A DNA stretch of 64,000 bases from NCBI GenBank assembly GCA_025544715.1, contig GCA_025544715.1_4109.1, one strand, 5' to 3'. The stretch is from Escherichia coli. GTDB lineage: Bacteria > Pseudomonadota > Gammaproteobacteria > Enterobacterales > Enterobacteriaceae. The position numbers and the translations under genes are program-made. Below the pieces are notes generated by a model. The model had not been told where the DNA came from. It saw only the letters and a program-made list of their open reading frames with translations, and searched no databases. Positions 1,040-18,138 of the stretch are shown one piece after another. The stretch's first letter is position 1. Every line of letters starts with the position of its first letter.

Positions 1040-1876
1040 ATGGCTATGAATCCACTTGCTAAGTACACTAAAATTGAAGAGATCAGTACTAAGTTAGTTA
1101 CAAACGGCGTTATTCCTTATAAAGAAGGAGTTCTAGGTCCAAAAGGTGTCAAATGTGGAGTTTGTGCACGTAGTGCACGTGATGAAATGACACTTAATAC
1201 CCCCGATATGTTACTAAACGGAGATGCAGTATCCCGTGTTATTGAAAACTGTGTTCCTAATGTAATTGACGCTGATGAGTTGTATGTAAATGACGTTGAA
1301 ATGCTTCTTATTGCTATTAAAGTTGCTTCTAAAGAAGAAACATATGATATTAACGTTGTATGTCCTGAATGTGAAAAAGAAGGTCGATTTGAACGTAATC
1401 TATCATATCTTCTTGAAACTGCACAAGCATTTGAAGAAATCCCATCAATTGATTTAGATAATGGGCTACGTTTGGAATTTAGACCACTGACATGGAAAGA
1501 ATATTCATCGTTTGCTGAACGCATGTTCAGTGAGCAGCAGAAGACTAAGTTTCTTGAAACTGCTGATATTGATAAAGATGAAAAAGTAAAAATATTTTCT
1601 GAAGTATTTGAAAACATGGCTCAACTTAACTTCGATATGATTGGTGGAGTTATTGCAAAAATTATAACACCAGATGGTGATGAAGTAGTTGAAAAAGAAT
1701 TTATTAATGAATGGCTTGGACAACAATCGAAGGGAGTACTTAAACTAATTCGTGAAAAAATGGATGAAGTACTTGAAATTGGAGTATCACATAGTATGGA
1801 AGTAGAATGTGATGGATGTAATCATCAATGGGAAATTGATGGACTAAAATATGATCCTAGTCATTTTTTCGAGTAA
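1040..1876 (+). CDS. Zinc-ribbon protein with three CxxC pairs (CGVC, CPEC, CDGC); possible baseplate hub or assembly factor
   Basis: 278-aa ORF with GGAG RBS and late promoter upstream; cysteine pairs seen in translation; function by context only. Confidence 0.6.
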   Translation: MAMNPLAKYTKIEEISTKLVTNGVIPYKEGVLGPKGVKCGVCARSARDEMTLNTPDMLLNGDAVSRVIENCVPNVIDADELYVNDVEMLLIAIKVASKEETYDINVVCPECEKEGRFERNLSYLLETAQAFEEIPSIDLDNGLRLEFRPLTWKEYSSFAERMFSEQQKTKFLETADIDKDEKVKIFSEVFENMAQLNFDMIGGVIAKIITPDGDEVVEKEFINEWLGQQSKGVLKLIREKMDEVLEIGVSHSMEVECDGCNHQWEIDGLKYDPSHFFE

Positions 1877-2085
1877 TGCTTCTCCAGTCATCTCCTGAAG
1901 AAATACAAGAAGTACTGAAGGAGATAGAACTGAATAAGTCAGAAATCAAAAATGCACTAATGGAATGTTCTGTATATATGGATAACATTGACTATGGAAC
2001 ACTCCTTAATATGCCATTAATAGATAGAGACTTATTAGTTAAGTCTTTTAATAAAAAAATTAAAAAACAAAACGAGAAGCACTAA
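1876..2085 (+). CDS. Small hypothetical protein (69 aa)
   Basis: Start overlaps upstream stop (TAATG coupling); followed by an intrinsic terminator. Confidence 0.4.
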   Translation: MLLQSSPEEIQEVLKEIELNKSEIKNALMECSVYMDNIDYGTLLNMPLIDRDLLVKSFNKKIKKQNEKH

Positions 2086-2093
2086 TTTTCATA

Positions 2094-2122
2094 TAGCCAG
2101 CACATTGTTGCTGGTTTTTTTT
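2094..2122 (+). terminator. Rho-independent terminator
   Basis: CCAGCA-cattgt-TGCTGG stem-loop followed by TTTTTTTT. Confidence 0.6.
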
Positions 2123-2311
2123 GGTTTTAAACTACAGAATTATTTGAATTGAATTATGAAAGGATTAATTTTAATATTATTGGATTCATCTAACTCATTT
2201 CATTCGTTAGCTGAAGAATATTCGTTACTACGTAACTCATATTCATTTAATTAAATTAATTATAAAGAACTTTAAAAGATTTAATACTTGACGGGATTTG
2301 TTGAGGACATT

Positions 2312-2371
2312 TTCATCCCCCCGCAGGGGAATGAAGACAATAAAAAAGAGACAATGAAGTCTCTATTTCTT
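2312..2371. terminator. Two adjacent hairpins; second is terminator-like in both directions
   Basis: TTCATCCCC-ccgca-GGGGAATGAA, then AGAGAC-aatgaa-GTCTCT flanked by an A-run upstream and ATTTCTT downstream. Confidence 0.4.
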
Positions 2372-2398
2372 GACGCTGATGGTTTCAGCATTTATTGT
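2370..2398 (+). promoter_or_regulatory. Candidate sigma70-like promoter TTGACG-N17-TATTGT
   Basis: Hexamers and 17-nt spacing seen directly; would transcribe into the ORF-free GC-richer region. Confidence 0.3.
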
Positions 2399-2399
2399 A

Positions 2400-2760
2400 T
2401 TGCGAATTTCTTAAAAATATATTAAGAACGAAAGCGGGTTGCTCTGTTTCTCTCTATCGCAGTCATGTGCAACGGTCGTCAGTCTTAATCATCCTGACAC
2501 TCACCTGAAAGTCTATACAATCAAACTTCAGGCTGTTTATTAAAATCACTTAATAAACTCCCTTAGCAAATCTGGTAAGGTGCGATCCTTATATGTCTAT
2601 CGAGGAACTCTCTGTATGCTTATCGGAGTTCTTTATTGAGCCGCATTGCCGTGAGGGGTTCAAACTATGCCCACATCTAACGGGTTTCTTTTGCTCATCG
2701 CACTGTTGAACTGCTCATCTGCCATCTACATTTTCGATAGGATCAGGTTCTAATTTATAT
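2400..2760 (+). ncRNA. Candidate structured non-coding RNA or decayed insert (ORF-free, GC-richer than surroundings)
   Basis: No ORF of 60 aa or more in any frame between 2086 and 2921; local composition visibly richer in G/C; several hairpins (e.g. GAACTC-15nt-GAGTTC followed by TTTATT at about 2625-2660). Class not identified; no tRNA cloverleaf found. Confidence 0.25.
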
Positions 2761-2921
2761 GCATTTCTGCATTCAACAGGATTGTCATTACTACAACAAA
2801 CATTATAGCACAAACTTTAAAGTTGTCTCACTATTTTTATAAAAATATTCATTAAGTACTTAAAATATTGCAAATAACTAATCCATAAATATTTTGATAA
2901 CAAATAGTTTGGTGAGGAATT

Positions 2922-3413
2922 ATGAAAAAAAGATTAAAAGATAGTAAGGATGCTGCAAACTATCGAAACGAATTGCTAAAGAAACAAAATGGAATAGATC
3001 CTATAATTAACGAACCAATAACTAAACCAGTACTGGATCACTACCACTATGGTAACCAACATTGTAGACAAGTTCTTCAAAATGAAGTCAATGCTTGGGA
3101 AGGAAAGGTGCAAAACAGCTTCAATCGATATATGAAGCACTTAACTGATAAACCATTATATGAGGTACTCAGAAATCTTGCTGATTACCTAGAGCGTAAT
3201 AACAGCATTCCTGACGATGAACAAGTTATACATCACACTGCACTAACTGTTGATGTTAATAAGTTTAAAAGGCTCCCAGCAACACAGCAAAACGCGATTC
3301 TGGAAGGGTTAGGAGTTGTCCCTGGTAGCAACACTACTGCTCGTGTAAAGCAAGCTAGAAAGCTGATTAAAGACGGTAAATTAAATATGGTTGATATAAA
3401 AAAAGGGAGCTAA
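2922..3413 (+). CDS. Endonuclease VII-like (His-Me finger) nuclease, possibly a free-standing homing-type endonuclease
   Basis: Motif LDHYHYGNQH...LQNEVNAWEG parallels the T4 endonuclease VII core HLDHDHELNG...CNLCNAAEG (recalled), with D/H/H/N/E retained but the zinc-binding cysteines absent. GGTGAGGAA RBS; CATAAATA 31 nt upstream. Confidence 0.6.
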   Translation: MKKRLKDSKDAANYRNELLKKQNGIDPIINEPITKPVLDHYHYGNQHCRQVLQNEVNAWEGKVQNSFNRYMKHLTDKPLYEVLRNLADYLERNNSIPDDEQVIHHTALTVDVNKFKRLPATQQNAILEGLGVVPGSNTTARVKQARKLIKDGKLNMVDIKKGS

Positions 3414-3430
3414 GGCTCCCTTTATCTTTA
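3397..3430. terminator. Bidirectional rho-independent terminator between convergent genes
   Basis: A-run, GGGAGC-taag-GCTCCC, T-rich tail; sits between the stops of the 2922 gene and the gp46-like gene. Confidence 0.7.
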
Positions 3431-3431
3431 A

Positions 3432-5579
3432 TTAGAAAACATCATCAAGAGTTGCATATTCAACAGTACTGAAACCGTCTTCTTTAACAACTTTGAGGAT
3501 TTTTTCAGTCTTAGAAAGTAACTCTTCTCTATGGGAAATAGCATAAACGTTCTTACCACGTACAGCAGCCATATCTTGGAAGATAGACCACACACGTAGA
3601 ACACCACTTGAGTCAAGACCTTGGTCAATCATCTCATCAATGATAAGAATATTAATACTTTGGTATAATGACTCATATGTATCACGGAAAGCACAAGATA
3701 ATGCGATGTTTACCCTTGTACGCTCACCTCTACTAAGCTGTTTATAGTCAAAGTACTGCCCACTCTTCTCAATTTCAACACTCAAATCATTCAAAAACAC
3801 AACATTATGCTCAGAACCGCACATATCGATATAGTACTGAAGTCGTGTATTCAAATATGAGATATTTTGCTCAATAATACGTTTACGGACATAAGAATCC
3901 TTGTTTAAAAGTAATTTAACCAAGAAATCTTGGTGATTTGACATTTTATCAAGATTATTATAGTCGCTATAATCGATTGGTACTAAAGAATCAGTCTTCA
4001 GAGTATTAATTTGGCTAATAAATGTGTTAGTAGTCTTCAATTCACGATCTAATTGCTGTGATAATGAATTTACAGTCATTTCTAACTCTTTAACTTCATA
4101 TTTGTTTAATGTATCTGGAACTTCCATTAGTTCATATGAGTTAAGTTCATCATATGATGACATAAGTTCATTTGCATAGATGTTTATTGGTTCTTCTTCA
4201 CTCTTTCTGACCAATTCTTGAAGCTTATGTTCATGCATTTGTGCTTCCGAAAGTGTATTATAATATGTCACAGGTTTAGGTGGCATATCAAAAATCTCAA
4301 TACTATCAATTTCTTGAAGTAATGTTTCAATTTCAGAAGAAGAACTATCAATTTTAGCTTGAAGATCATTAATAGTACTTTGGATTTTGTCTTTAATTGA
4401 AGAAGTATGTTCGTTATGTTCCAATTCAGACATACAAAGTGGACATTTGCTGTTTTCAACTGTTGATAATTTGTCAATTTCAGCATTAATTGAACATTCA
4501 TATCCTTTTAAAGCTATTTTTAGTGAGTTTAGTTTTTGTTCTTTGAAACGTTTTTGGTTATTATTCTCTTTTAGAATACCCTCTAACTGTTTCCATATCT
4601 CCAACTCATTATGATTTTCCAATTCTGCACTAATATCAATAGTTTTTAGCTTATCAATGCTTAGATTTAATGCTCTTTTAGATCTTTCAAGTTCACGGTC
4701 ATATGCATCAAATTTTAAAGCCAACTCTTGTACACGGCGTTCAATTTCACCACGCTTTGCGTTATGAATAAGAGCTTTCTCTTTTATGTCAGCAGCTTCA
4801 TAGAGGTCATTAAAGTCTAAAGTTTTATATATATTCAACTCTTCATTTAACTTAGATACTCTATTATTTTTATCAATTTCAAACTGGTTTGCCTGTTCTT
4901 GTAGTGCCTCAATACTTTTTTGAATACGTTCATTACTTGCAGCTACAGTTTCATTTTTGAACTTTTCTTGTTCGGCTAAACGTTTAGTATCCTTATACAT
5001 CTCCTTTAGCATTTCAGCTTTTTCCGTCAACTGTGTTATTCCAAGAAGTTCTTCTATCATATCACGTTGTTTTTGTGTGGATAAAGCTAAGAAAGGTTCA
5101 ACGTTAGCATTCAGTACTACAATATGTTCAAATAATAATTGAGATATACCAAGAATTTCATTCAAATCTTCTTGTGTGTCTTTCTTTTCTCCCCTTGATT
5201 CATCTTCAATTTTATTATCTTTCCCTAAAGTAACAAAATTGAAATACGTGGGACTTCTCCCACGTTCAACCAAATATTGTACACCATCTTTTTCAAACTC
5301 TACAACTACTTCACAATTTTTTCCATTAGTTTTATTGACTAGGTTAGGAATTTTAATATCGTTACCAATACTTTTACCAAATAATCCAAAAACTAATCCT
5401 TGAATAATAGCACTTTTCCCTACACCATTTCGACGTCCGGTACTGTCACCACCTTCAATAACTGCATCATTATTTTGACCCAGTACTAATGAAATGTCGG
5501 AACCATTCAAGTCAATTGATTGTGGTGCATTACCAAATGAAAAGAAGTTCCTCATAGATATACGTGTAATGTTTAGCAT
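3432..5579 (-). CDS. Rad50/SbcC-like recombination nuclease ATPase subunit (T4 gp46-like)
   Basis: Walker A GRRNGVGKS, long coiled-coil middle with CPLC zinc-hook motif, ABC signature LSRGERTRV, Walker B ILIIDEM, H-loop; AGGGA RBS. Confidence 0.9.
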   Translation of the reverse strand: MLNITRISMRNFFSFGNAPQSIDLNGSDISLVLGQNNDAVIEGGDSTGRRNGVGKSAIIQGLVFGLFGKSIGNDIKIPNLVNKTNGKNCEVVVEFEKDGVQYLVERGRSPTYFNFVTLGKDNKIEDESRGEKKDTQEDLNEILGISQLLFEHIVVLNANVEPFLALSTQKQRDMIEELLGITQLTEKAEMLKEMYKDTKRLAEQEKFKNETVAASNERIQKSIEALQEQANQFEIDKNNRVSKLNEELNIYKTLDFNDLYEAADIKEKALIHNAKRGEIERRVQELALKFDAYDRELERSKRALNLSIDKLKTIDISAELENHNELEIWKQLEGILKENNNQKRFKEQKLNSLKIALKGYECSINAEIDKLSTVENSKCPLCMSELEHNEHTSSIKDKIQSTINDLQAKIDSSSSEIETLLQEIDSIEIFDMPPKPVTYYNTLSEAQMHEHKLQELVRKSEEEPINIYANELMSSYDELNSYELMEVPDTLNKYEVKELEMTVNSLSQQLDRELKTTNTFISQINTLKTDSLVPIDYSDYNNLDKMSNHQDFLVKLLLNKDSYVRKRIIEQNISYLNTRLQYYIDMCGSEHNVVFLNDLSVEIEKSGQYFDYKQLSRGERTRVNIALSCAFRDTYESLYQSINILIIDEMIDQGLDSSGVLRVWSIFQDMAAVRGKNVYAISHREELLSKTEKILKVVKEDGFSTVEYATLDDVF

Positions 5580-7445: not shown

Positions 7446-7533
7446 TGTATTTTACTCTCCATGTTTAAATCCAATAGGTACAATCCTTGTACCATCAATG
7501 TTATTATAGCACCAAAAAGCATTTTGTCCCACG

Positions 7534-7541
7534 TATAAATA
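7534..7541 (+). promoter_or_regulatory. T4-type late promoter box TATAAATA
   Basis: Exact TATAAATA 36 nt upstream of ATG 7577 and inside the 5-prime extension of track ORF 7487..8308, which argues for the downstream start. Confidence 0.55.
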
Positions 7542-7576
7542 CATCAAATGTTCCCTTATTATGGAGAATCAAAAAG

Positions 7577-8308
7577 ATGATTGATCGTAGAATTCGATTA
7601 CGACCTAAAGCCGCAGGTGCTAACTATGTATATGGTGATTTCGGAGATAGCTCCGAACCAACACTACTTTCGTTTCTGCGTCCAACTAATGGGTTGGTTT
7701 GGACTGTAACACCAACAATTACTGAACAAAGGTCAATTCAGTATGAAACACAGTCTCCTATACATACCAACAGTAACTATAACAACTATAAGAACACTAC
7801 TAATACAGTTTTCACGATTCAGGGTGAATTTTATGCAAATACAGCAGCAGAAGCTATGTATGCATTGGCATGTGTTCATTTTATACGTTCTGTTTCATTG
7901 ATGGATTTTGGTAGACAAGCTGCTTCGGCTAATAACCCCGAACTCGCAATTGCGGGTGCACCACCACCAATCTTACTTCTAAGTGGATATGGTCGTTATA
8001 CATATAATGATATTCCTGTTATTTTAAAATCTTATAATTTTACTTACCCAAATGATGTTTCTTATATTCAAGTTCCGTTGAATAGTAGCGATAGTACTTT
8101 TAATTTATCCGACATGGATAGTAGAAAATTCTTCGAACAACTTAGAAGTACTGGGTACATGAATCCACAAGATGAAGTTTGGGTTCCACAAAAAATTTCA
8201 GTTATGTTACAACTTGAAGAACAACCTACATCTGATTATATGACTAAAACGTTCAACCTAAATGCATTTAAACGTGGTGAACTATTACGTAAAGGAGGAT
8301 TTATTTAA
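7577..8308 (+). CDS. Baseplate or tail structural protein (first gene of late baseplate operon)
   Basis: ORF with GGAGAA RBS 10 nt upstream of ATG 7577; late promoter upstream; function by position only. Confidence 0.6.
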   Translation: MIDRRIRLRPKAAGANYVYGDFGDSSEPTLLSFLRPTNGLVWTVTPTITEQRSIQYETQSPIHTNSNYNNYKNTTNTVFTIQGEFYANTAAEAMYALACVHFIRSVSLMDFGRQAASANNPELAIAGAPPPILLLSGYGRYTYNDIPVILKSYNFTYPNDVSYIQVPLNSSDSTFNLSDMDSRKFFEQLRSTGYMNPQDEVWVPQKISVMLQLEEQPTSDYMTKTFNLNAFKRGELLRKGGFI

Positions 8309-8622
8309 TGTCCAACTATAGTCAATACTCACCTTACGCTAAGGTGAAACAAACATGGTATCTTGGGTATAATTTACCACGTGATATTGTTCCGGCTGAT
8401 ACTGATGATTTTTATGAGATCCCATTGAAATATGAATATCAACCTTGGCGTTTAGCATACGAAATGTATGGTAATGAACGCTTATATTATATTTTCGCAT
8501 TGTTAAATCCAGACATACTAGGAGAAGATCCTATATATAATTTTAAAAGTGGAGTAACAATTAGAATACCAGCAAATCAAAGAGTACAAAATTATCTTAA
8601 TGGTACTCGAAACATAGGCTAA
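8308..8622 (+). CDS. Small LysM-like tail protein (P2 gpX-like fold candidate)
   Basis: 104 aa, start overlaps upstream stop; segment RLAYEMYGNERLYYIFALLNP...GVTIRIP resembles LysM-type baseplate proteins (recalled pattern). Confidence 0.45.
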   Translation: MSNYSQYSPYAKVKQTWYLGYNLPRDIVPADTDDFYEIPLKYEYQPWRLAYEMYGNERLYYIFALLNPDILGEDPIYNFKSGVTIRIPANQRVQNYLNGTRNIG

Positions 8623-8633
8623 TGGAGTAACGT

Positions 8634-10883
8634 ATGGCAGATTTACGAAGTACAGTTGATAATTTTCAAAATGATATTACAAGTATTACTGGTAAGGCTA
8701 AAACCACCACATCTAATGCACTTGATAGTTTGAAAGCTACAGCAAATACATTACAAAATGATGTAAAAACTATTACAAAAAATAATTACAAAGCAAATGT
8801 AAGTAATGTAGTATCATTACCAAAACAAAGTGCTAGTGTCGATCAAGTTTATGAAGATCTAGATTTAAGTCAGTTTGTAATACCGTATGACAATAAATTA
8901 TTGAAATATGATAATCCAACATGGCACTTTTGTTTATTTGCCTTAGATAAAGATGATTTTAAAAACTTTTGGCTTTACCCAGATGCAGAAGTGCAACGAC
9001 ATGTAATATCAGAAAGTGGTGTTACTGGCAAATATAATATCACTAGTGTACAAATGACACAAGCTGGCCCGTCAACACCAGGAATGACAACAAACTATTG
9101 CTTTAATACAGCAGTACTTAATATGTCTGAAAATAATAGTATGAGTCTATATGACGAATTAATTTCGTTAAGTAACAAACTTAGATATCATAAATTCATG
9201 GACTTGCCATTGATCTTGGAATTAAAGTTTATTGGCTTTAATAAAAATGGAATACCTGAAATTATCCCAGAAACAACAAGACGCTGGTCAGTTAAAATTA
9301 ATAGTGTTACTGCAAGTGCTTCACAAAGTGGTAGTACTATGATGTATACTATGAACTTAGTTCATAATAGAGCAGCTTTAGTTGATAACATTGAATGGAC
9401 ATTAAAAGAACCATTCAATTGTACTGCTGAAAACTTTGGTGACTTCTGTTTTGATTTAGAAGATAAATTAAATCAGATGGCTGACCAACAATATGGTTAT
9501 CTTAGATATAAATTTGGTGAATTATCCGAAGGTAAATTTTTCGAATTTAAAGTAGCTCCTGATTTGCAAGATTTGTTTATAAACTATGATTCTAAACAAA
9601 TGGCAGAGGCTGGAACAACTAAAAGTGGTGCACAAGGTTCTAAAAACTTTTCATGGAACCCAAGTACTCCTATATCTCGAATTATTGATGACGTTATTGA
9701 TACATGTACTGTACAAGCAGATGATAGTACTAGTGTGCGTCAATTTGTAAACATTATACCAGTTAAACAATACGTTGGTTTTGATAATTATCGTAATACT
9801 TCTGTTTATAAAGTAATTTTTTACATTGTTAGATTTAAAATAGGTGATATTGTTCATGAATCTGATTTACAACCTGAAAATTTCACATTTGAGTACTTTT
9901 TTGAGAACGCAGAAAAATACGTAGATCCTAATGATCAAAAACCAAAAATAAACATGAAAACTTATAATTATCAATTTAGTGGGCTTAATAGTGAGATACT
10001 TGATTTGGATTTGAAATTTGATCAGCAATTTTTCGTAGCCACTACACGTAACCCTGGTCCGATACAAGATGTAGCGAACCATGCAGGTACACATACATCC
10101 CAAGAACTCAATATTCAAGGTGTACAATACAATAGTATACCAGACGCATGGGCAAAAACAAGTGATTTACGTGTAACTCGTGATTTAGGAGGGATGTTAA
10201 CACAAGCCCAACAACAATTGTTAACTGAAGTTGAAACTTTAGCAAAAAATCAAATGCAGGTTGGTAACGCAGAAGAACAAGACCGTTATAATAACTATCA
10301 AGTCAATGTTTTACCTCAATATATTGAAGATTATGTAACCACTTATGAAGAAAACGATGGCGGTACTGATGGTGTTGGTCACCGTTATGGTGAAGTGTTC
10401 ACAATGCCAACCGAAGCAACTAACAATGAAACAACGTTATCCGCTTCGTTAAACGATAACAGCAGCACATATGAAATGGATAGACGTAAAATACGTGACA
10501 ACTATTACAATAGACCTTTTTTGTGTAAACTCGATATGCGTGTAGTAGGCGACCCGTACTGGTTAGGGTGGAGTGATTACTCTTACTTACAATATCTAGA
10601 ACAAGTAATTAATGGTGAAGATATGGAAATTAACCCAGATGATTATCATGTAGCAAATTATATAACATCTGAAGCGTATCTATTACTAAAATTACAACCA
10701 GTAATATCAATAAATGATAACACTGGTGTTTTGGATATTAATACACCAACTACATTTAACCAAACAATTTATCGTGTTAATAAAATTGTTCATGATTTTG
10801 GTGCAGGTGGTTCTTTTACACAACAAATTCAAGCTGCAATTGTAATTCGTGCACTCAAACGTCACGATAGTATAGTTGATTAA
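8634..10883 (+). CDS. Putative baseplate hub protein (gp27/gpD position)
   Basis: 749-aa ORF immediately upstream of the spike gene; TGGAG RBS; assignment is positional. Confidence 0.55.
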   Translation: MADLRSTVDNFQNDITSITGKAKTTTSNALDSLKATANTLQNDVKTITKNNYKANVSNVVSLPKQSASVDQVYEDLDLSQFVIPYDNKLLKYDNPTWHFCLFALDKDDFKNFWLYPDAEVQRHVISESGVTGKYNITSVQMTQAGPSTPGMTTNYCFNTAVLNMSENNSMSLYDELISLSNKLRYHKFMDLPLILELKFIGFNKNGIPEIIPETTRRWSVKINSVTASASQSGSTMMYTMNLVHNRAALVDNIEWTLKEPFNCTAENFGDFCFDLEDKLNQMADQQYGYLRYKFGELSEGKFFEFKVAPDLQDLFINYDSKQMAEAGTTKSGAQGSKNFSWNPSTPISRIIDDVIDTCTVQADDSTSVRQFVNIIPVKQYVGFDNYRNTSVYKVIFYIVRFKIGDIVHESDLQPENFTFEYFFENAEKYVDPNDQKPKINMKTYNYQFSGLNSEILDLDLKFDQQFFVATTRNPGPIQDVANHAGTHTSQELNIQGVQYNSIPDAWAKTSDLRVTRDLGGMLTQAQQQLLTEVETLAKNQMQVGNAEEQDRYNNYQVNVLPQYIEDYVTTYEENDGGTDGVGHRYGEVFTMPTEATNNETTLSASLNDNSSTYEMDRRKIRDNYYNRPFLCKLDMRVVGDPYWLGWSDYSYLQYLEQVINGEDMEINPDDYHVANYITSEAYLLLKLQPVISINDNTGVLDINTPTTFNQTIYRVNKIVHDFGAGGSFTQQIQAAIVIRALKRHDSIVD

Positions 10884-10896
10884 GGAATAAAATATT

Positions 10897-13560
10897 ATGG
10901 CAGATACAAGTAAAAAGTATGCACAACAGCAGTTGGGTCGTTTTGACCCATCTTATCCGCAGTTAGCAACTGTTATGGATAACAGAGATCCAACTAAATC
11001 AGGAAAACTGAAAGTTTGGATACAAGGTTCACAGAGTGATAAAAACTCAAAAGAATCATGGATAGAAGCATCTTACATGTCTCCTTTTGCTGGCAAAACA
11101 CCAGGCATTCCAAGTGCTGATGCATATGGTCAATATCCAAAAGGATACGGTTTTTGGGCAGTACCACCAGATGTAGGGTGTACAGTTGTTGTAATTTTTG
11201 CACAAGCCCGTACATTCCAAGCATATTGGATTGGTTGTGTATATGACCAGCGTATGAATACTATGGTTCCAGGTATGGCAACTGAAGTAAGTAATTATGG
11301 TGGAACTGATATGCCACTTCCTGTTACTGACTATGATCGTAACACTATCACTACCGATATGCAAGACAAATATGCTAACGTTCCAATCATCGCAGGTCTT
11401 AAAAAGCAAAACCTTTTATATGACGAAGAAGCTGGGTTGGCGAATCGTAGTAGTACTCGACAAACCACAAGTACTGTATATGGGATGTCATCACCGCGTG
11501 GAAATAGTTTCATTATTGATGATGGATATACTGAAGAGGAATTAACTGCACCCACATGGGATCAAGACCCAGATGGATATCAAGATACGCAATTTAATAA
11601 CCCAGTAAACGATACCCGTGTTGGTTCTCGTAAAAATGAAGGTGTTGTAATAAAAACACGTAGTGGTGCACAACTTCTTTTATCAGAAGCAACTGGTGAT
11701 GTTCTTTTAATTAACCGTGACGGTACTGCACGTATTAAATTCACTGGTGAAGGTGATATTGACATGCATTGTGACAAGAATATCAATATTCGTGCAGGAC
11801 AAGATATTAATATTACGGCTGGACGTTCATACAACATTGAAACCGGACAAGATTTCAATGCACGCGTTGGTGCAAATACTAAATTAGATCTAATTGGTGC
11901 TCTTGATGCAAAAGTTGGTGGACAAGTGGTGGTTAATTCAGGTGCTGACCTTCGTTTAGTTACGGCTGCATCATTGCGTATGCAAAGTGGTAGCAGTACT
12001 GATATTACTGCTGGTTCAAATGCGTCTATTTCTGCTTCTACATCTGCAAACTTAATTGGTTCATCTTCAGCAATTGTTAGTGGTGGAGGTCAAACATTAA
12101 CAGTTAATAGTGGTGGTAATAGCGGTACTGCTGAATTTACTGCACCAAATTTCAGAACACCATCTGCTGGTCTTAATGAACACATTCATGATATTGCCGC
12201 TTGGGTTAATGCTGAAAATCATGGTAGTTATGTTGAACCACCAAGACAAGGTGGGGGGAGTGGCTCAAGTGAATCACCAGTTCAACCCCAGCCAGCAAAC
12301 GATGTATCACCAGAACTACCAGTTGCACAAGATACAGAAGCTGTTCAGTTTGTAAACTATACATCAGAAACTGAACAAGTGCAATCTCAAGATTTAATGA
12401 CATCTGACCCTGGAATGACTGGATATAGTATTACATATGAAGGTTTACATATGTTCATGCCATGTAGTGGTACTATTCGCCAATATGGTTATTGGGGGAA
12501 AGGTGTTCCAACACAAAGTGGTGGGAAGTCAGATCGTTCTGGATGGGAAATACAATGTAAAGGTGACATAGTTGCACCCGATGGTGGTGTAATAGTAATT
12601 ACTAATGGTGCACTGTTAATACAACATAAGTCAGGATATAAATCTGTATTTTATAATATTCAATCTGATTTATTAAACAAAGATGTTGTTCAAAAAGGAC
12701 AAGTTGTTGGTAAAGCAAATGGTGTTATACAGTTTGAAATACGTGTTACATCAGCTAACGTGCTTGGTTTTAGCGGTTCAGTTGATCCTGGTCTATTTTA
12801 TGCATCTCAAACTGGTACTGGTTCTGACGCAGCCAATAAAACATTAATTGCAGGAAAAGCAACCAATCAATCTGCACCTCAAGCAGTAGTGCAACCTTCT
12901 GTTGATAGTGATGAATTAGTAGTTACTACAAAAATTAAAACAATTGGTACAGGTTATTCACAACGTGGTTCACGACATGTTCCTCGTCGAAGAAGAACAC
13001 AAAGAAGTGGTGTTTCAACTACGCCAGTTGAGCAACCAACTTATAATATAGGTAATGTTGATAAAACAGCCATAGATTGGAAAGTTGTTCCAGGTGATGC
13101 TCAGTTTATTTCTGAATTAAAAGAATATGAGGGTACATTACAATATCAACAAGCAAAGGGATATTATCGTAATGGTAAGTTCTGGCGTTATTTAGACAGT
13201 CGTGGATATCCAACTATTGGTTACGGTCACTTAATTGTTAGCGGTGAAAACTTCTCTGATGGAATAACTGAACAACAAGCAAATGATATGTTAGTTCGTG
13301 ATAGTAGTAAAGCAATTTATGATGCCAAATCAATTTATGCTTCATATAACATGAAAACTCCTTATCTTGCTCAACAAGTACTATGCCAAATGGTATTTCA
13401 GATGGGTAAAGGTGGTGTATTGAAATTTAAAACTATGTTATCAGAAATGGCAAAAGGTAATTATAAACAAGCAGCGGCACAAATTCGTAATTCTGCTTGG
13501 TATCGCCAAACCACACGCCGTGCGGAGTTAATGGCTCGTCGTTTGGAGGCATGTCAATAA
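10897..13560 (+). CDS. Baseplate central spike (gp5-like): OB-fold, beta-helix, M23-like module, C-terminal T4-lysozyme-like domain
   Basis: N-terminal LATVMDNRDPTKSGKLKVWIQG resembles the gp5/VgrG OB-fold; repetitive NINIRAGQDINITAG... beta-helix; EHIHD after the helix; C-terminal MVFQMGKGGVLKF...WYRQTTRRAELMARRLE closely parallels T4 lysozyme (recalled). Confidence 0.85.
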   Translation: MADTSKKYAQQQLGRFDPSYPQLATVMDNRDPTKSGKLKVWIQGSQSDKNSKESWIEASYMSPFAGKTPGIPSADAYGQYPKGYGFWAVPPDVGCTVVVIFAQARTFQAYWIGCVYDQRMNTMVPGMATEVSNYGGTDMPLPVTDYDRNTITTDMQDKYANVPIIAGLKKQNLLYDEEAGLANRSSTRQTTSTVYGMSSPRGNSFIIDDGYTEEELTAPTWDQDPDGYQDTQFNNPVNDTRVGSRKNEGVVIKTRSGAQLLLSEATGDVLLINRDGTARIKFTGEGDIDMHCDKNINIRAGQDINITAGRSYNIETGQDFNARVGANTKLDLIGALDAKVGGQVVVNSGADLRLVTAASLRMQSGSSTDITAGSNASISASTSANLIGSSSAIVSGGGQTLTVNSGGNSGTAEFTAPNFRTPSAGLNEHIHDIAAWVNAENHGSYVEPPRQGGGSGSSESPVQPQPANDVSPELPVAQDTEAVQFVNYTSETEQVQSQDLMTSDPGMTGYSITYEGLHMFMPCSGTIRQYGYWGKGVPTQSGGKSDRSGWEIQCKGDIVAPDGGVIVITNGALLIQHKSGYKSVFYNIQSDLLNKDVVQKGQVVGKANGVIQFEIRVTSANVLGFSGSVDPGLFYASQTGTGSDAANKTLIAGKATNQSAPQAVVQPSVDSDELVVTTKIKTIGTGYSQRGSRHVPRRRRTQRSGVSTTPVEQPTYNIGNVDKTAIDWKVVPGDAQFISELKEYEGTLQYQQAKGYYRNGKFWRYLDSRGYPTIGYGHLIVSGENFSDGITEQQANDMLVRDSSKAIYDAKSIYASYNMKTPYLAQQVLCQMVFQMGKGGVLKFKTMLSEMAKGNYKQAAAQIRNSAWYRQTTRRAELMARRLEACQ

Positions 13561-13572
13561 ATATTTTAGCAC

Positions 13573-13580
13573 TATAAATA
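13573..13580 (+). promoter_or_regulatory. T4-type late promoter box TATAAATA
   Basis: Exact TATAAATA 17 nt upstream of ATG 13597 (lysozyme gene). Confidence 0.55.
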
Positions 13581-13596
13581 AAACGAGGATATCTTT

Positions 13597-14085
13597 ATGA
13601 GTAAATGGGAAATTAAAAATACAGATGAGCAATTTTTTAAGGAAATTAAAGAATTTGAAGGAACTATTGCTTATCAGAAAAAACTTGGTTATTTTAAAAA
13701 TGATAAGTTTTGGGTATATAAAGACAGTTTAGGTCTTGATACTATTGGTTATGGTCATCTAGTTCTTCCTGGTGAAAATTTCAAGAATGGTTTGACCGAA
13801 GCTCAAGCTGACCAACTTCTTCTCAAAGATGCTCAAACTGCGTACAATGATGCAAAATCAATTTATGAACAATTCGGTATGACCGCACCAGTACAGGTAC
13901 AACGTGTATTATGGTTAATGGTATTCCAAATGGGAAAAACCAAAGTTTTGAAATTTAAAAAAGCAATGACCGCATTAGGTAAAGCTGATTACAAAACTGC
14001 TGGTAAAGAATTGCGTGATAGTACATGGTATAAACAAACCACTTCACGAGCGGAAAAGATGGCACGTATCGTTGAATCCGTATAA
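13597..14085 (+). CDS. T4 lysozyme-like endolysin (GH24 muramidase), paralog of the spike C-terminal domain
   Basis: EFEG catalytic Glu context, DTIGYGHL, MVFQMGKTKVLKFKK, WYKQTTSRAEKMARIVE; alignable by eye to the spike C-terminus across about 150 aa. Confidence 0.9.
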   Translation: MSKWEIKNTDEQFFKEIKEFEGTIAYQKKLGYFKNDKFWVYKDSLGLDTIGYGHLVLPGENFKNGLTEAQADQLLLKDAQTAYNDAKSIYEQFGMTAPVQVQRVLWLMVFQMGKTKVLKFKKAMTALGKADYKTAGKELRDSTWYKQTTSRAEKMARIVESV

Positions 14086-14100
14086 TAAAGGAAATAGACA

Positions 14101-14496
14101 ATGGCAGTTGTTTTTAAAGGGTTTTCTACCCCTGTAGTTGGTAGAACTGAAACATTGTATGATAGTGAATTGGTTCGCCAAGATTTAATGAATCATTTCA
14201 ATACAAAAAAAGGTGAACGAGCATTTGATGCTGACTATGGGTTTATTGCATGGGATTTGCTATTTGAATTGGAAGGTTATAATACTATCAACCTTTTAGA
14301 AGCAGATGCCCGTAGAATAATTAGCTTAGACCCACGTTTAAATCTTAAAAAATTACAAATTTCAAGAATAGAATATGGATACCAAATGAATATTGTATTA
14401 CAGTACGTAGTATTGGACACATTAGAAGAACTTACTATAGTATTTGATGCAAGAAGTAATAATCGAATGGCAACATATTCAGTTTCGTCTTTATAA
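14101..14496 (+). CDS. Baseplate wedge protein gp25/gpW-like
   Basis: 131 aa; KGERAFDADYG resembles the gp25 GSRPFDPEFG region (recalled); position between spike and gp6-like gene. Confidence 0.8.
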   Translation: MAVVFKGFSTPVVGRTETLYDSELVRQDLMNHFNTKKGERAFDADYGFIAWDLLFELEGYNTINLLEADARRIISLDPRLNLKKLQISRIEYGYQMNIVLQYVVLDTLEELTIVFDARSNNRMATYSVSSL

Positions 14497-14501
14497 TTAT
14501 A

Positions 14502-14530
14502 AAAGCACTCTTCGGAGTGCTTTTCTTTTT
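14502..14530 (+). terminator. Rho-independent terminator
   Basis: GCACTC-ttcg-GAGTGC followed by TTTTCTTTTT. Confidence 0.7.
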
Positions 14531-14597
14531 GAATAAATATTTCTATATATAATTCCCAGTACTGAACTAGTACTTTACTGATTTAAAGGAATAAATT

Positions 14598-17500
14598 ATG
14601 TCACAACAAAAAAGGCAATCAAATTTATACGCTGGTGAGGATTGGACTCAAGTATATGAAAGTTTTTATAAAATCAATCTAACAGCTTATGATTTCGATA
14701 CTATCCGTCAGAGTATGATTGATTATCTACGTGCAACTTACCCAGACTCATTCAACGACTGGATCGAAAACGACCAGTTTATTTTTATTTTAGATACGAT
14801 TTCTATGCTAGGTCAGAACTTGGCATTTCGTATGGATTTGAACACACGTGAAAACTTTTTAGATACTGCAACTCGTCGTGCATCAGTACTAAAACTAGCT
14901 AAAATGATTTCTTACTCACCACGCCGCTCATATCCAGGTCGTGCAGTTGCTAAATTAACCGAAATTAAAACAAACCAAGATGTTCGTAATAGTTTTAATG
15001 AATCATTAAAAGATAAAATCATTCGTTGGAATGACCCGATGGATGCTAACTGGTATGAAAACTTTATTCTAGTAATGAACAGTTCATTTGTCAGTACTAA
15101 CCAATTTGGTAATCCAGTCAAGCGTATTGATGTTAATGGTGTCTCCCGTCAACTATATCGAATGAACACCATCCCAATGACAGCACCCAGTATTCCATTT
15201 ATTGCAACTGTCAATGGTGAATCTATGACATTTGAAGTAGTGAATCCTGACATTACGTCTGTTGGTGTTGAAGAACGACATCCAGAACCACAAGAGCAAA
15301 AATATATTGTTTATCAAAATGATGGTAATGGATTTAGCTCACCAAATACTGGGTTTTTTGTATATTTCGTACAAGGTACATTAACATATCAAGATTATCA
15401 ATATGCTATCCGTGAAGAGAACCGTATACAAGATATTAACGTTGATAATATCAACGAAACTGATGTATGGGTTCAAGAAATAAATGAAGATGGTATTGTT
15501 CGTACCAAATGGACAAAAGTTCCATCAATGGAAAGTATTGCATATAACACTGTTAATCGTCAATTAAAAACAATTTTTGCTGTTACTACTCGTGATAAAG
15601 ACCAAATAACAATTAAGTACCCAGACTCAAGAAGTGGTGTTGTTCCCCGTGGGACGTTCCGTGTATGGTATCGTGTTAGTAATGGTAAAACATATAACAT
15701 TAAAACTTCTGAAATTCAAAACAAAAGCGTAAAATATACATATCGCACAAAAACACAGTCAAGTTATGAATCTAGTACATTGGATATACGTTTTTCATTA
15801 CAATATGAGTCTGACCGTGCACAAAGTGCCGAAACTATTGAGCAAATTAAAGCACGTGCACCACAAATGTACTATACCCAAAACCGTTTTGTCAATGGTG
15901 AAGATTATAATATAGCACCACTTAGTTTAGGAAATACTGTACTTAAATCTAAAGCTATTAATAGAATTTATAGTGGTCAATCAAGGTTCATTGATATCAA
16001 TGATCCTACGGGTAAGTATCAGAATACCGACGTTTTTAGTGATGATGGTGCATTATATCAAGAAAACACGCAATTTAATAGATCGTTATTGCTCCCAACT
16101 ACAAAAACAAATGCTAGTATTGTTATTGACAATATTCAACCATTGATTGGGGAAAATGCAGTAATACAACGTTACCAAGCGTATCCATCCAATACAATTG
16201 GTATTGAAATACAACAAGCATGGACTCCTGTGTACAATTCAAATTACACAACCAATACATATGGCAGAATTTTGGGTTCGTCTGGAACAGTGTATGGTTC
16301 GTATCAGGTAGGTACTCTTATTAAATTTTCTAATTCTGGTACTACGATATGGGCAAGTGTTGTAAGTGTGTTAGATAATGGTTTTTATGTACTAAGCACA
16401 TCTGTTCCTAGTGGAATGCAAGCAATAGAGTACATATTACCATATAGAACTAGATTTAACACAGTTGAAGTTCAGTCTATTTCTGCTATGTTGGATAAAA
16501 AAACCGATTTTGTAATTGTACATGATAAAGAAACAACTTCATGGGTTCCAATCGAAGCAAGTACTAATGACGATACTATTGTGTATAATGGTAATGAAGT
16601 TTTAATTATAATAAATGTAAAATATACTGCTGAAACTTGGGAATTTGATGCTAATGGTATTGAATATATATTTGTGGGTGGGGATAAAGTAAGATTTTAT
16701 TTTGTATCATCTAAAAAAATCACTGATATAAGTACTGGTACAGTTCAAAGTGATAAGATTGAAATTTTATCATCTAACACTACTAGTAGTAGTAATTCAG
16801 GATTGACAAGTAATATAGATTTTCAAATTTATGACACAATTCAACAAGAGAATGGCTATCTAGATGGTTCTCGTGTTATTGTTACATCTAGAAAAGTAGA
16901 TAGTAATGGTATACCGTTGGAACCAAACCAATTTAAAGAAATTGTTCCTACCTGGACAGGAACTGATGCATTAAAATATGGTGGTATTTTGGTATTTCAG
17001 GAAAATAGTGATTTCACTATATCAGTACTGTCTTTACCAAATGATACCTTCACACTTCTTGATTCATCGTGGTCTTATACAATGGAACAAGCCTTGGCAG
17101 AGCCGAATGCATATAAAAGAACTGAATTTGTTAGAAATAACGCAATTCGTTCAACCACATTGAGTGGATTATATAGTAAAGGTTCTGGATTTTTAGTTGG
17201 TTTTAACTATGATGGTAAATATTATTTTATTGAACAAACAGTTGGCAATAACAATGATCGTTTGGGACAACTAATTAGTAATTTAACTTATTCCGATGAT
17301 ACTGGCACTGTTAGTCCTGAATTGGCTTTTTATCGTGCAATTAATAACATGGGAACTAATGCTGACGAGAATCAGAAGCTAGATTATTATGGATACAAAG
17401 ATGTTACTTCACAGTACACTGTTAAAACTAATGCACGTACTAGTATAGACTTCCATTGGAAACACTATGCACCTGACGACAATAGAATTGATCCTAGTAG

Positions 17501-18059
17501 AACAAACTTAATTGATATGTATGTATTAACCAATTCATATAAAACTGAAGTTGACGTTTGGTTGAAAAATAATGCTGTTGGTAGTATTCCTAAACCACCA
17601 ACATCGGTTGAATTGAAAGATATGTTCAAAGATGTTGAACAAAAAATAGTCATTAGTGATAGTATCATTTGGCATAGTGCTGAGTACTTACCTTTATTTG
17701 GAAACAGTGCTGCTGAAGATTACAAAGCTGATTTTAAAGTAGTGAAATTACCAAACAGCACAATGAGTGATGATGAAATTCGTCAAAATGTCATAGCATT
17801 AACTAATGAATACTTCAATGTTGATAACTGGGATTTCGGTGAAAGTTTCTATTATACTGATTTGTGTACTTACATACACTCACAGTTAGGTAGACATATT
17901 AGTACTATTGTTATAGTTGCACAAAATCCAAATTCAAAATTTGGCTCTCTATTTGAAATCCCTTCACGTTCAGACCAAATATTCTTGAGTACTGCATCTG
18001 TTGAAAATGTTCAAATTGTTAACTCACTAGCTAAAAGTAATATTAATATCGGTTCTTAA
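14598..18059 (+). CDS. Baseplate wedge protein gp6/gpJ-like (Baseplate_J family candidate), 1153 aa
   Basis: N-terminal region (YDFDTIRQSMIDYLRATYP...FLDTATRRASVLKLAKMISYSP) fits the recalled Baseplate_J N-terminal pattern; follows gp25-like gene; AAGGAA RBS. Confidence 0.7.
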   Translation: MSQQKRQSNLYAGEDWTQVYESFYKINLTAYDFDTIRQSMIDYLRATYPDSFNDWIENDQFIFILDTISMLGQNLAFRMDLNTRENFLDTATRRASVLKLAKMISYSPRRSYPGRAVAKLTEIKTNQDVRNSFNESLKDKIIRWNDPMDANWYENFILVMNSSFVSTNQFGNPVKRIDVNGVSRQLYRMNTIPMTAPSIPFIATVNGESMTFEVVNPDITSVGVEERHPEPQEQKYIVYQNDGNGFSSPNTGFFVYFVQGTLTYQDYQYAIREENRIQDINVDNINETDVWVQEINEDGIVRTKWTKVPSMESIAYNTVNRQLKTIFAVTTRDKDQITIKYPDSRSGVVPRGTFRVWYRVSNGKTYNIKTSEIQNKSVKYTYRTKTQSSYESSTLDIRFSLQYESDRAQSAETIEQIKARAPQMYYTQNRFVNGEDYNIAPLSLGNTVLKSKAINRIYSGQSRFIDINDPTGKYQNTDVFSDDGALYQENTQFNRSLLLPTTKTNASIVIDNIQPLIGENAVIQRYQAYPSNTIGIEIQQAWTPVYNSNYTTNTYGRILGSSGTVYGSYQVGTLIKFSNSGTTIWASVVSVLDNGFYVLSTSVPSGMQAIEYILPYRTRFNTVEVQSISAMLDKKTDFVIVHDKETTSWVPIEASTNDDTIVYNGNEVLIIINVKYTAETWEFDANGIEYIFVGGDKVRFYFVSSKKITDISTGTVQSDKIEILSSNTTSSSNSGLTSNIDFQIYDTIQQENGYLDGSRVIVTSRKVDSNGIPLEPNQFKEIVPTWTGTDALKYGGILVFQENSDFTISVLSLPNDTFTLLDSSWSYTMEQALAEPNAYKRTEFVRNNAIRSTTLSGLYSKGSGFLVGFNYDGKYYFIEQTVGNNNDRLGQLISNLTYSDDTGTVSPELAFYRAINNMGTNADENQKLDYYGYKDVTSQYTVKTNARTSIDFHWKHYAPDDNRIDPSRTNLIDMYVLTNSYKTEVDVWLKNNAVGSIPKPPTSVELKDMFKDVEQKIVISDSIIWHSAEYLPLFGNSAAEDYKADFKVVKLPNSTMSDDEIRQNVIALTNEYFNVDNWDFGESFYYTDLCTYIHSQLGRHISTIVIVAQNPNSKFGSLFEIPSRSDQIFLSTASVENVQIVNSLAKSNINIGS

Positions 18060-18065
18060 TATAAC

Positions 18066-18090
18066 GGGCGTTCTTCGGAACGCCTTTTTT
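18066..18090 (+). terminator. Rho-independent terminator
   Basis: GGCGTTC-ttcg-GAACGCC followed by TTTTTT. Confidence 0.7.
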
Positions 18091-18138
18091 ATATCATAAA
18101 TAAATCAAATGAATGAACGAATTATATGGAGTCCAAAA

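Follow-up and report, generated by a model that had tools for sequence, protein, structure and literature searches.

In the 64-kb window analysed here (the whole stretch of DNA, a piece of an Asteriusvirus jumbo phage), the minus strand of positions 2283-2830 is, judged from comparative sequence analysis, a gene, one of four paralogues, whose product is a large structured non-coding RNA (ncRNA) that stands alone and belongs to a previously undescribed family. By BLAST, window positions 1800-3500 and 2125-2920 are 99.2-99.9% identical to the Escherichia coli phages 121Q, PBECO4, G17, phAPEC6 and others, with 2125-2920 corresponding to 121Q 327305-326510 in reverse orientation, and this gap is left unannotated in most GenBank phage records. 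As an initial annotation of the window had stated, no open reading frame (ORF) of at least 60 amino acids (aa) is present at 2125-2920 in any frame, the longest being 45 aa, and the core is richer in GC. In 200-nt windows its GC fraction is 0.375-0.42 (about 2300-2800), while the sequence on either side (2001-2300 and 2701-3000) has 0.24-0.275; neighbouring genes reach 0.33-0.40, only slightly less than the core, so that it is chiefly these AT-rich flanks that make it stand out. The same annotation had read the locus as a small structured RNA. The kind of molecule is borne out by strong covariation, but it is not small, with some 460-500 nt, at least 18 helices and two pseudoknots, and it lies on the minus strand, where the nhmmer profile of the family matches window 2828-2283 (E=1.2e-127).

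The evidence that carries this finding is the pattern of substitution among homologues. The initial annotation had named a lack of covariation there as grounds for dropping its reading; covariation proved abundant, and the structured-RNA reading survives. Pattern scans of IMG/VR followed by nhmmer gave 53 hits, 44 of them full-length and 40 distinct at 97% identity, and an alignment of 40 distinct copies was built with MAFFT from sequence only, with no fitting to structure. RNAalifold predicted 68 pairs on this alignment, 45 of them with compensatory changes. Further helices and two pseudoknots were added by eye and checked column by column, giving a model of 80 pairs in 18 helices, in which 96.8% of alignment cells are paired, against 77.0 ± 0.4% when columns are shuffled and 38-42% when the partners are slid by one to three columns. 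Changes on both sides are seen at 59 of the 80 pairs (583 cells), where the slid controls give 17-30 pairs (67-105 cells), and the covariation score is 0.535, compared with 0.07-0.10 for slid partners and 0.18 for shuffled columns. Compensatory substitutions well beyond controls are thus found, as for a structured RNA. The fold of the window copy, from 5′ to 3′ in RNA sense, is as follows.

2703..2779, minus: 5′ domain, in which helix P1 (2779-2772/2709-2703) encloses P1a (2771-2767/2763-2759) and P1b (2741-2736/2726-2722); compensatory changes at 7 of 8, 5 of 5 and 5 of 5 pairs, respectively
2637..2697, minus: P2 (2697-2693/2641-2637) and P2a (2683-2680/2652-2649), in which the internal strands AAGAAACCCGUUAG and CACGGCAAUGCGGC are invariant and an insert is variable; 100% of cells paired in both helices, with compensatory changes at 3 of 5 and 1 of 4 pairs
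2576..2631, minus: P3 (2631-2626/2610-2605), invariant junction GAUAGACAUAU and P4 (2591-2588/2579-2576); all six P3 pairs compensatory, with up to four Watson-Crick pair types per pair
2394..2534, minus: 3′ doubly pseudoknotted domain of P5, PK1, P6, PK2, P7, P8 and P9, supported by covariation
2534-2531 and 2526-2523 / 2514-2511 and 2506-2503, minus: helix P5
2521-2515 / 2400-2394, minus: pseudoknot PK1, from the P5 loop; 7 bp, 95% paired, 5 pairs compensatory
2499-2489 / 2480-2477, minus: helix P6
2473-2469 / 2442-2438, minus: pseudoknot PK2, with its second strand in the P8 loop; 5 bp, 100% paired, 3 pairs compensatory
2461-2457/2405-2401, 2454-2450/2434-2430 and 2427-2424/2412-2409, minus: helices P7, P8 and P9; 4 pairs compensatory in each

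In PK1 the P5 hairpin loop pairs with a strand about 115 nt downstream, and from one paralogue group to another the whole helix is exchanged at once (AUUGUAU/AUACAAU, UUCAUGU/ACAUGAA, GUCGAAU/AUUCGAC). In PK2, GUUGC pairs with GCAAC in the P8 loop, with the variants GUUAC/GUAAC, GUCAU/AUGAC and GUUGA/UCAAC. P4 is followed by an invariant AAGGGAG and then by a variable linker that leads into the 3′ domain, and the single-stranded joints between helices (GAUAGACAUAU, AAGGGAG, CGACCGUUG, ACCCGC and CACGGCAAUGCGGC) are likewise invariant.

The same pairs identify the strand. Read on the minus strand, the modelled pairs contain 216 G·U and 18 A·C combinations, an excess that places the RNA on this strand. 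A first RNAalifold pass had favoured the plus strand through G·U pairs at helix ends; it was overturned by a strand-neutral test on the strongly covarying stacks, in which the internal combinations in plus orientation are 19 A·C and no G·U. A plus-strand RNA starting from TTGACG-N17-TATTGT is rejected by these strand tests. That sequence, which the initial annotation had taken for a promoter, does exist at 2370-2398; its ‘TTGACG’, however, is the reverse complement of an invariant CGUCAA/G box of the RNA, and its ‘TATTGT’ overlaps the 3′ strand of PK1 and is not conserved as a −10 element because it is part of that covarying helix. Promoter-like matches in the region are in any case at chance level (6 found, 6.5 expected).

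The conserved non-coding sequence is bracketed by its own promoter and its own Rho-independent terminator on the same strand, the arrangement of an independent bacterial-type ncRNA gene as far as these predicted signals go. The signals and the elements around and beyond the terminator are listed here.

2824..2829, minus: −35-like box GAGACA, conserved in position and sequence in 49 of 49 copies (family consensus G(A/G)AAC(G/A))
2802..2810, minus: extended −10 element TGCTATAAT, supported by conservation and by a promoter scan (minus 2831..2802)
2340..2796, minus: primary transcript predicted from the conserved promoter and the intrinsic terminator, about 456 nt long with the terminator U-run included
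2369..2389, minus: box 1, a small hairpin ending in CGUCAA/G (RNA sense GCUGAAACCAUCAGCGUCAAG); CGTCA is invariant in all aligned copies and kept in bacterial islands
2337..2364, minus: Rho-independent terminator, AGAGACUUCAUUGUCUCU followed by UUUUUAUUGU (terminator scan, minus 2364..2347)
2312..2335, minus: C-hairpin UUCAUUCCCCUGCGGGGGGAUGAA with an invariant G-run; 97.5% of cells paired, 5 of 5 pairs varying on one side only
2287..2305, minus: box 2, CUCAACAAAUCCCGUCAAG, with the second invariant CGUCAA/G motif, kept in all phage and island copies
2125..2286, minus: AT-rich 3′ extension (GC about 0.24) with degenerate motifs, such as the hairpin CUAAC-GAAUGAAAUGA-GUUAG at about 2222-2196

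The promoter is kept in all 49 copies that reach its position, as G(A/G)AAC(G/A), 13 A/T-rich bases and TGnTATA(A/C)T; TATAAT is invariant in the 40 phage copies, TATACT occurs in a few island copies, and the TG is present in 46 of the 49. Transcription is predicted to start at about 2794-2797. The sequence matches a divergent, RpoD-like promoter class of Rak2-like phages, described for CBB and GAP32, that combines a ‘TGAAACG’ −35 box with a classic −10 box and lies mostly upstream of DNA-synthesis genes (PMC5259590). At the other end, the hairpin at 2347-2364 that the initial annotation had called terminator-like is the RNA's own terminator: it is the better terminator on the minus strand, where TTTTTATTGT comes next. 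A hairpin plus U-run of differing sequence is found at this position in about half of the copies.

It is hardly credible that no functional RNA lies here and that the region is instead a decayed or frameshifted protein gene, or a cluster of DNA signals with chance hairpins, possibly transcribed from the plus strand. Promoter- and terminator-like matches do occur on both strands, two homologues hold ORFs of 118 and 133 aa, and the plus strand folds somewhat better than its shuffles, with a minimum free energy (MFE) z-score of −2.28 where the minus strand reaches −2.94. These observations have to be set against the compensatory changes, the pairing that falls to about 40% when partners are slid and the predominance of G·U over A·C described above, as well as against conservation over phages of nine host genera and into bacterial islands. 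The alignment, moreover, has no three-nucleotide periodicity of substitution, and 84% of its gap runs are not multiples of three; a hidden protein gene was rejected on account of these frame-breaking indels and because the longest ORFs are not conserved and mostly antisense. No sign was seen of the frameshifted ordinary gene that the initial annotation had considered.

Nor does the RNA correspond to a known class. A cmscan search of window 1800-3200 against Rfam 15 at E<=1 returned only weak hits, on the unrelated plus-strand terminator at 2045-2129, and a scan of ten homologue loci (28.9 kb) only short-sRNA hits, all well below gathering score; the scans took in group I and II introns, RNase P, tmRNA, 6S, ROOL, GOLLD, OLE, HEARO, riboswitches and ribozymes. 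ARAGORN finds no tRNA or tmRNA gene in the whole 64-kb window, in agreement with the first reading by eye. A group I intron remnant was rejected: all four 121Q loci are intergenic and give no Intron_gpI hit, the helix order P5-PK1/P6/PK2/P7/P8/P9 differs, and endonuclease VII, the neighbour of the window copy, is a resolvase rather than a homing enzyme and is absent from the other copies. An omega RNA of IscB or TnpB (HEARO) or an IS110 bridge RNA was also set aside, as no such gene adjoins any phage copy and the recombinases near the island copies vary in type (a tyrosine integrase or a large serine recombinase) and in distance. We found no published description of the RNA, whether in papers on RaK2, CBB, UE-S1 and PA5oct or in a screen for viral structured RNAs, whose 10,006 candidates are at most 151 nt long.

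The family is a constant feature of the Rak2/121Q-like jumbo phages. BLAST matched about four places in each phage genome. A search of the whole 121Q genome, with the gene-free gaps read from its annotation tables, gave exactly four copies, at 90.3, 192.8, 247.5 and 326.6 kb, which are 70-80% identical over 450-600 nt, share one orientation, are intergenic and fill four of the five longest gene-free gaps of the genome; sharply conserved blocks alternate among them with variable or inserted segments. The longest 121Q gap, 135194-137161 (1,967 nt), is not a family member. The other three paralogues map outside the 64-kb window, which holds no further copy. Four to five co-oriented copies per genome are present in about 11 contigs of jumbo-phage size and in every Rak2/121Q-like phage examined, and within IMG/VR the family, all copies of which are recovered by the nhmmer profile, is confined to contigs of jumbo size or fragments thereof. 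In GenBank it occurs in 70-71 phage records with hosts in nine genera (Escherichia, Klebsiella, Salmonella, Erwinia, Yersinia, Cronobacter, Pectobacterium, Serratia and Xanthomonas). Conservation across phage genera amounts to 62-80% identity, and the substitutions preserve the structure. The copies from non-Escherichia phages form about five groups, with one member of each per genome. Synteny of the endonuclease VII-adjacent group holds from genus to genus, which marks the paralogues as old.

The neighbour of the window copy, at 2922-3413, is confirmed as an endonuclease VII homologue (PHROGs phrog_423, E=1.9e-35), with no Pfam match at E<=0.01; endonuclease VII is a core resolvase gene of T4-type phages. 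By eye, most of the cysteines that bind zinc in the T4 enzyme appear to be missing from this homologue. The proposal that the locus is the decayed remnant of a mobile insertion tied to this endonuclease does not hold, given clear purifying selection and three of four 121Q copies without an endonuclease neighbour. On the far side of the gap, the terminator claimed at 2094-2122 is present on the plus strand (2095-2116 plus a T-run), where it closes the upstream genes. The window copy lies about 4 kb from a gp55-like late sigma factor gene, and the 121Q paralogue at 90270-90786 is directly downstream of an RpoD-like sigma factor gene, gp167 (89267-90232).

Two kinds of sub-module vary between the copies. 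Some copies contain an extra 28-nt module (RNA sense UUGUACAAUAUAGAUCCGUCCAAAAUUU) at either of two variable loops (columns ~380-420 and 555-592 of alignment A1); in 121Q it is found at 90533, 193059, 247741 and 247893 and nowhere else in the 348-kb genome, and the window copy is without it. A general promoter or a mobile genome motif was rejected as an explanation for this cassette, which is found inside RNA copies only. It contains a motif related to the two invariant AUCnCGUCAR boxes. The P2 insert (A1 columns 197-242) takes two unrelated forms, short and long (~38 nt), across paralogue groups and genera, a distribution that suggests recombination or gene conversion between copies.

The RNA has also entered bacterial chromosomes. 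BLAST against 5,426 complete E. coli genomes detected a homologue, about 70% identical over 90% of the query, in two chromosomes, those of LR-29-1 and EEC_W5 (NZ_CM130020.1). The LR-29-1 copy is full-length (nhmmer E=5.5e-132), with promoter, both optional cassettes, box 1, terminator, C-hairpin and box 2, and is part of an island of some 10.7 kb flanked by ffs and ybaA (positions 7958-18302 of locus L207, which is NZ_AP027515.1 3466997-3491514, reverse complement, with the RNA at 11896-12547). Besides a tyrosine integrase gene interrupted by an IS3, it encodes a resolvase, hypothetical proteins and mSLOG-DUF4326, DUF488 and DuOB, the last two of which match the PADLOC candidate defence system PDC-M45. 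The closest known phage copy is 80.6% identical to this E. coli island copy. Phage 121Q itself encodes, as gp497 (231088-231405), a DUF4326 homologue with 41% identity over 109 aa to the island mSLOG-DUF4326 (L207 14996-15589). The 700 nt after the RNA copy (L207 ~12560-13258) are free of ORFs and hold closely spaced TTATCGATCG repeats (…acgatcggtaatatgattatcgatcgttattatcgatcgttttt…) that look iteron- or operator-like.

Further islands come from metagenomes. A two-block pattern picked out 73 metagenomic loci, 73 of 73 true members by nhmmer and many of them in jumbo-phage contigs; a looser scan of bacterial genomes with GATAGAYATATN{16,32}AAGGGA gave at least 120 matches, and the 120 listed, all chance by nhmmer, are uninformative on absence. 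A subset of the metagenomic loci is on contigs with bacterial housekeeping genes (rlmI-like, tilS, a POT transporter, type IV pilus), with the RNA inside small islands, and single copies lie in islands at L217 3733-14033, L209 3551-7749, L218 629-2897 and L276 2629-8672. Each of these islands has at least one item of a set made up of a recombinase (large serine type or tyrosine integrase), ParB/RepB-like genes, a divergent CI-like/Cro-like repressor pair and Kiwa KwaB, and the layout resembles that of a satellite or defence island. Two ParB_N+RepB genes, an S24 CI-like repressor, LprI and a small resolvase are also seen among these four islands. Of the 80 pairs, 90-98% are preserved in the island copies, which are 62-69% identical to the window copy and differ from it by 14-24 double changes; in them, too, PK1 covaries and the phage-type promoter is kept.

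Multiple copies in phages, transfer to islands that bear integrases, the 80.6% identity to the nearest phage copy and the retained phage-type promoter would all suit a selfish or conflict element, that is, an RNA module that is either a mobile parasite or an interface of phage-island conflict, such as a decoy against jumbo phages or a device by which a satellite hijacks its helper. The defence genes of the islands (PDC-M45 components and Kiwa KwaB) and the shuffling of P2 insert forms and 28-nt cassettes between copies point the same way. We nevertheless give this explanation little credence. The ancient paralogue groups cluster across genera and the endonuclease VII group is syntenic, so mobility is low; terminal repeats, target duplications and an associated transposase are absent, and no recombinase adjoins the phage copies. 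Such a description is, besides, one of an evolutionary role, which overlaps with the explanation that we prefer, would go with any of the mechanisms considered and is no substitute for one.

The surroundings of the copies bear on whether the RNA acts on its own transcription unit. Neither in phages nor in islands does any one protein family regularly adjoin the RNA, and the downstream phage genes have no common theme, with a recognisable domain, ADP-ribosylglycohydrolase, in one only. That gene (L028 6819-7811, on a contig like Serratia phage BF; Pfam E=2.9e-70) is directly downstream of one paralogue-group member. Directly downstream of the window copy, and of the L217 and L276 island copies, there is no gene in the same orientation. 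In several paralogue groups (for example L026, L047, L064, L066, L070 and L076; A1 columns 36-75) a strong hairpin with a U-run stands 3-10 nt after TATAAT, before P1. The order of promoter, structured RNA, terminator and further conserved transcribed elements would imply regulated read-through, and the RNA could be a cis-acting transcriptional leader, either an attenuator of riboswitch type or a processive antiterminator like HK022 put/EAR, that sets how often polymerase passes its terminator. It would thereby govern the downstream units; in islands, the transcription that it promotes would run antisense to a CI-like repressor gene oriented towards it. Most copies do have a co-oriented gene 20-150 nt after the module, copies are co-oriented with the bulk of transcription, and the RNA converges on a CI-like repressor gene in L217 and L276. 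As with the HK022 put and EAR RNAs, the structured RNA directly follows the promoter and precedes terminators within a phage transcription unit; unlike it, those RNAs are 70-120 nt long and have no pseudoknotted multi-domain core, and the window copy has no downstream operon. We judge a leader to be improbable, in that the window copy and all endonuclease VII-adjacent orthologues are without a co-oriented gene ahead of the next, bidirectional terminator, some half of the copies lack a canonical terminator on which a leader could act, and the downstream genes, as noted, share no functional theme. To our knowledge, no leader or antiterminator RNA comes within several-fold of the size of this one, with its roughly 430 nt and two pseudoknots.

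The sequence beyond the terminator is conserved as well. The C-hairpin is assigned to minus-strand RNA because the drift of its C-run to U opposite the invariant G-run leaves pairs (U·G) on that strand only. Box 2 is followed in most homologues by a TATAAAT-like, late-promoter-like sequence; the late-promoter consensus of CBB is ATAAATA (PMC5259590). The 3′ extension, present in most homologues (for example L016, L028 and L012) and kept in island copies, consists there of the TATAAAT-like sequence, UGAAUUGAGUU, a hairpin with a ACGAAGUGA-type loop and the element TTGAC-[covarying hairpin]-GGCAAAT, which sits just upstream of the next gene.

The main rival explanation is a cis-acting replication origin with a structured primer RNA in the manner of ColE1 RNA II or of oriF and oriG of T4. 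The invariant 3′ G-run would form a lasting hybrid with the template C-run beside the AT-rich stretch 2125-2286 and prime the leading strand, the four to five co-oriented copies would be multiple origins, and an island copy would be replicated by the replisome of an infecting phage. The RNA does share with these systems a promoter-driven, protein-independent unit of about 0.5-0.8 kb in which a fold is followed by a G-run and an AT-rich stretch; here an invariant run of five to six G lies about 480 nt from the start site, before the stretch of 24% GC. ColE1 RNA II is reportedly about 555 nt long and makes a G-run/C-run contact, T4 origins are said to use transcripts from middle-mode promoters, and T4-type phages use several promoter-dependent origins. 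The promoter class, mostly upstream of DNA-synthesis genes (PMC5259590), would suit an origin, as would the dispersal of strictly co-oriented copies round the genome, the conservation and passage to islands of the whole 0.8-kb non-coding module beyond the RNA core, and the ParB/RepB-like genes or iteron-like repeats that adjoin some island copies. Set beside R-loop origins of the T4 type, the locus has the promoter class tied to DNA synthesis and an AT-rich stretch, the latter about 500 nt downstream of the promoter and beyond a terminator.

We consider an origin unlikely all the same. About half of the copies have an intrinsic terminator between the RNA core and the G-run, and the G-run is itself paired inside an RNA hairpin. 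In contrast to ColE1 RNA II, there is no homologue among 72,556 plasmids searched with two island-type queries and no evident antisense regulator like RNA I, the plus-strand promoter-like site not being conserved as a promoter. GC skew in 121Q tracks gene orientation only and carries no origin signature. Finally, the pseudoknotted, sequence-invariant structure is far more conserved and complex than the ColE1 and T4 origin transcripts and far exceeds the needs of known primer RNAs.

We favour, with modest confidence, a trans-acting RNA that is expressed together with DNA-metabolism genes and whose invariant unpaired strands would form either a tertiary core or the binding site for a host or phage partner. 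Host RNA polymerase would transcribe the RNA from the middle-type ‘TGAAACG’ promoters alongside DNA-metabolism genes, and the product would adopt a compact tertiary structure and work in trans as a ribonucleoprotein scaffold, a decoy or a ribozyme-like RNA. Its partner would come from the host or the phage and not be encoded adjacent to it, and the four to five anciently diverged paralogues may supply dosage or distinct specificities. The island copies are probably active during jumbo-phage infection, because they have the same phage-type promoter, and could then compete with or exploit the function of the phage RNA.

Several observations weigh against this proposal. The transcript ends are predicted from sequence signals. 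The MFE z-score is modest and little better than that of the opposite strand. None of 500 shuffles attained the observed covariation values, but this control overstates significance because the sequences are related by descent; the control with slid partners is fairer, and its values are still fivefold lower than those observed. A role in cis is hinted at by the conserved C-hairpin, box 2 and 3′ extension beyond the terminator, the C-hairpin showing U·G variation of the RNA type, by the terminator-like hairpin with which the predicted transcript opens in some copies, and by the co-orientation of all copies within a genome, the window copy being antisense to its neighbours.

Whatever its mechanism, the RNA means that the largest ‘empty’ gaps in the genomes of heavily studied therapeutic-candidate phages are genes. 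The ancient paralogues in every Rak2-like phage examined and the capture by islands with defence genes are relevant to the start of replication in T4-like jumbo phages, and the same two features bear on RNA-based conflict between phage and host and between phage and satellite. A bolder and rather doubtful reading is that the RNA represents a new large catalytic or architectural class central to jumbo phage-island conflict: the phage would need the paralogues in its replication phase, for instance for priming or organising DNA synthesis or for disabling some host factor, and the islands would use their copy as an infection-triggered decoy or else as a hijacking device, in which case they would be the first known jumbo-phage satellites.

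The pRNA of phi29 offers a parallel, as a phage-encoded structured RNA with covarying complementarity between a loop and a strand; by analogy, PK1-type pairing could in principle be intermolecular. The pRNA is a single-copy RNA of about 170 nt encoded at the genome end beside the packaging genes, T4-type terminases are not known to need an RNA, and the two RNAs have no similarity in sequence or fold. PA5oct, a jumbo phage of the same broad clade, likewise has ORF-free ncRNA loci, four actively transcribed ones of 236-619 nt, two of them very abundant and without known homologues (PMC7318152). Its ncRNA001 and ncRNA002 gave no hit to the family profile (nhmmer --max, E<=10, PA5oct 7500-23500), and every invariant motif is absent from them.

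Large RNAs with complex folds are rare. Only a few dozen such classes are known in bacteria and phages, and nearly all with a solved function are a ribozyme, the core of a ribonucleoprotein or a sophisticated sensor; the RNA described here has the same hallmarks, in that its roughly 450 nt form 18 or more covarying helices and two pseudoknots and the strands that join them are invariant. A close likeness is to the ROOL, GOLLD, OLE and raiA-type motifs, large ‘ornate’ ncRNAs of bacteria and phages without an assigned function (PMC12286853). These, too, have hundreds of nucleotides, many covarying helices, pseudoknots and invariant joining strands, and they, too, are found in phage or prophage DNA with no dedicated protein gene alongside and in a context that is uninformative on function. 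The present RNA, however, has no Rfam 15 match to them, is smaller than GOLLD and is not beside tRNA genes, and in contrast to motifs of Firmicutes or rumen prophages it belongs to jumbo phages of Enterobacterales, with four to five diverged paralogues per genome. Because it is found, unlike ROOL, GOLLD and OLE, in culturable E. coli phages (121Q, PBECO4, phAPEC6, G17 and others) and in an E. coli chromosome, genetics, RNA-seq, pull-downs and cryo-EM are all feasible for this family.

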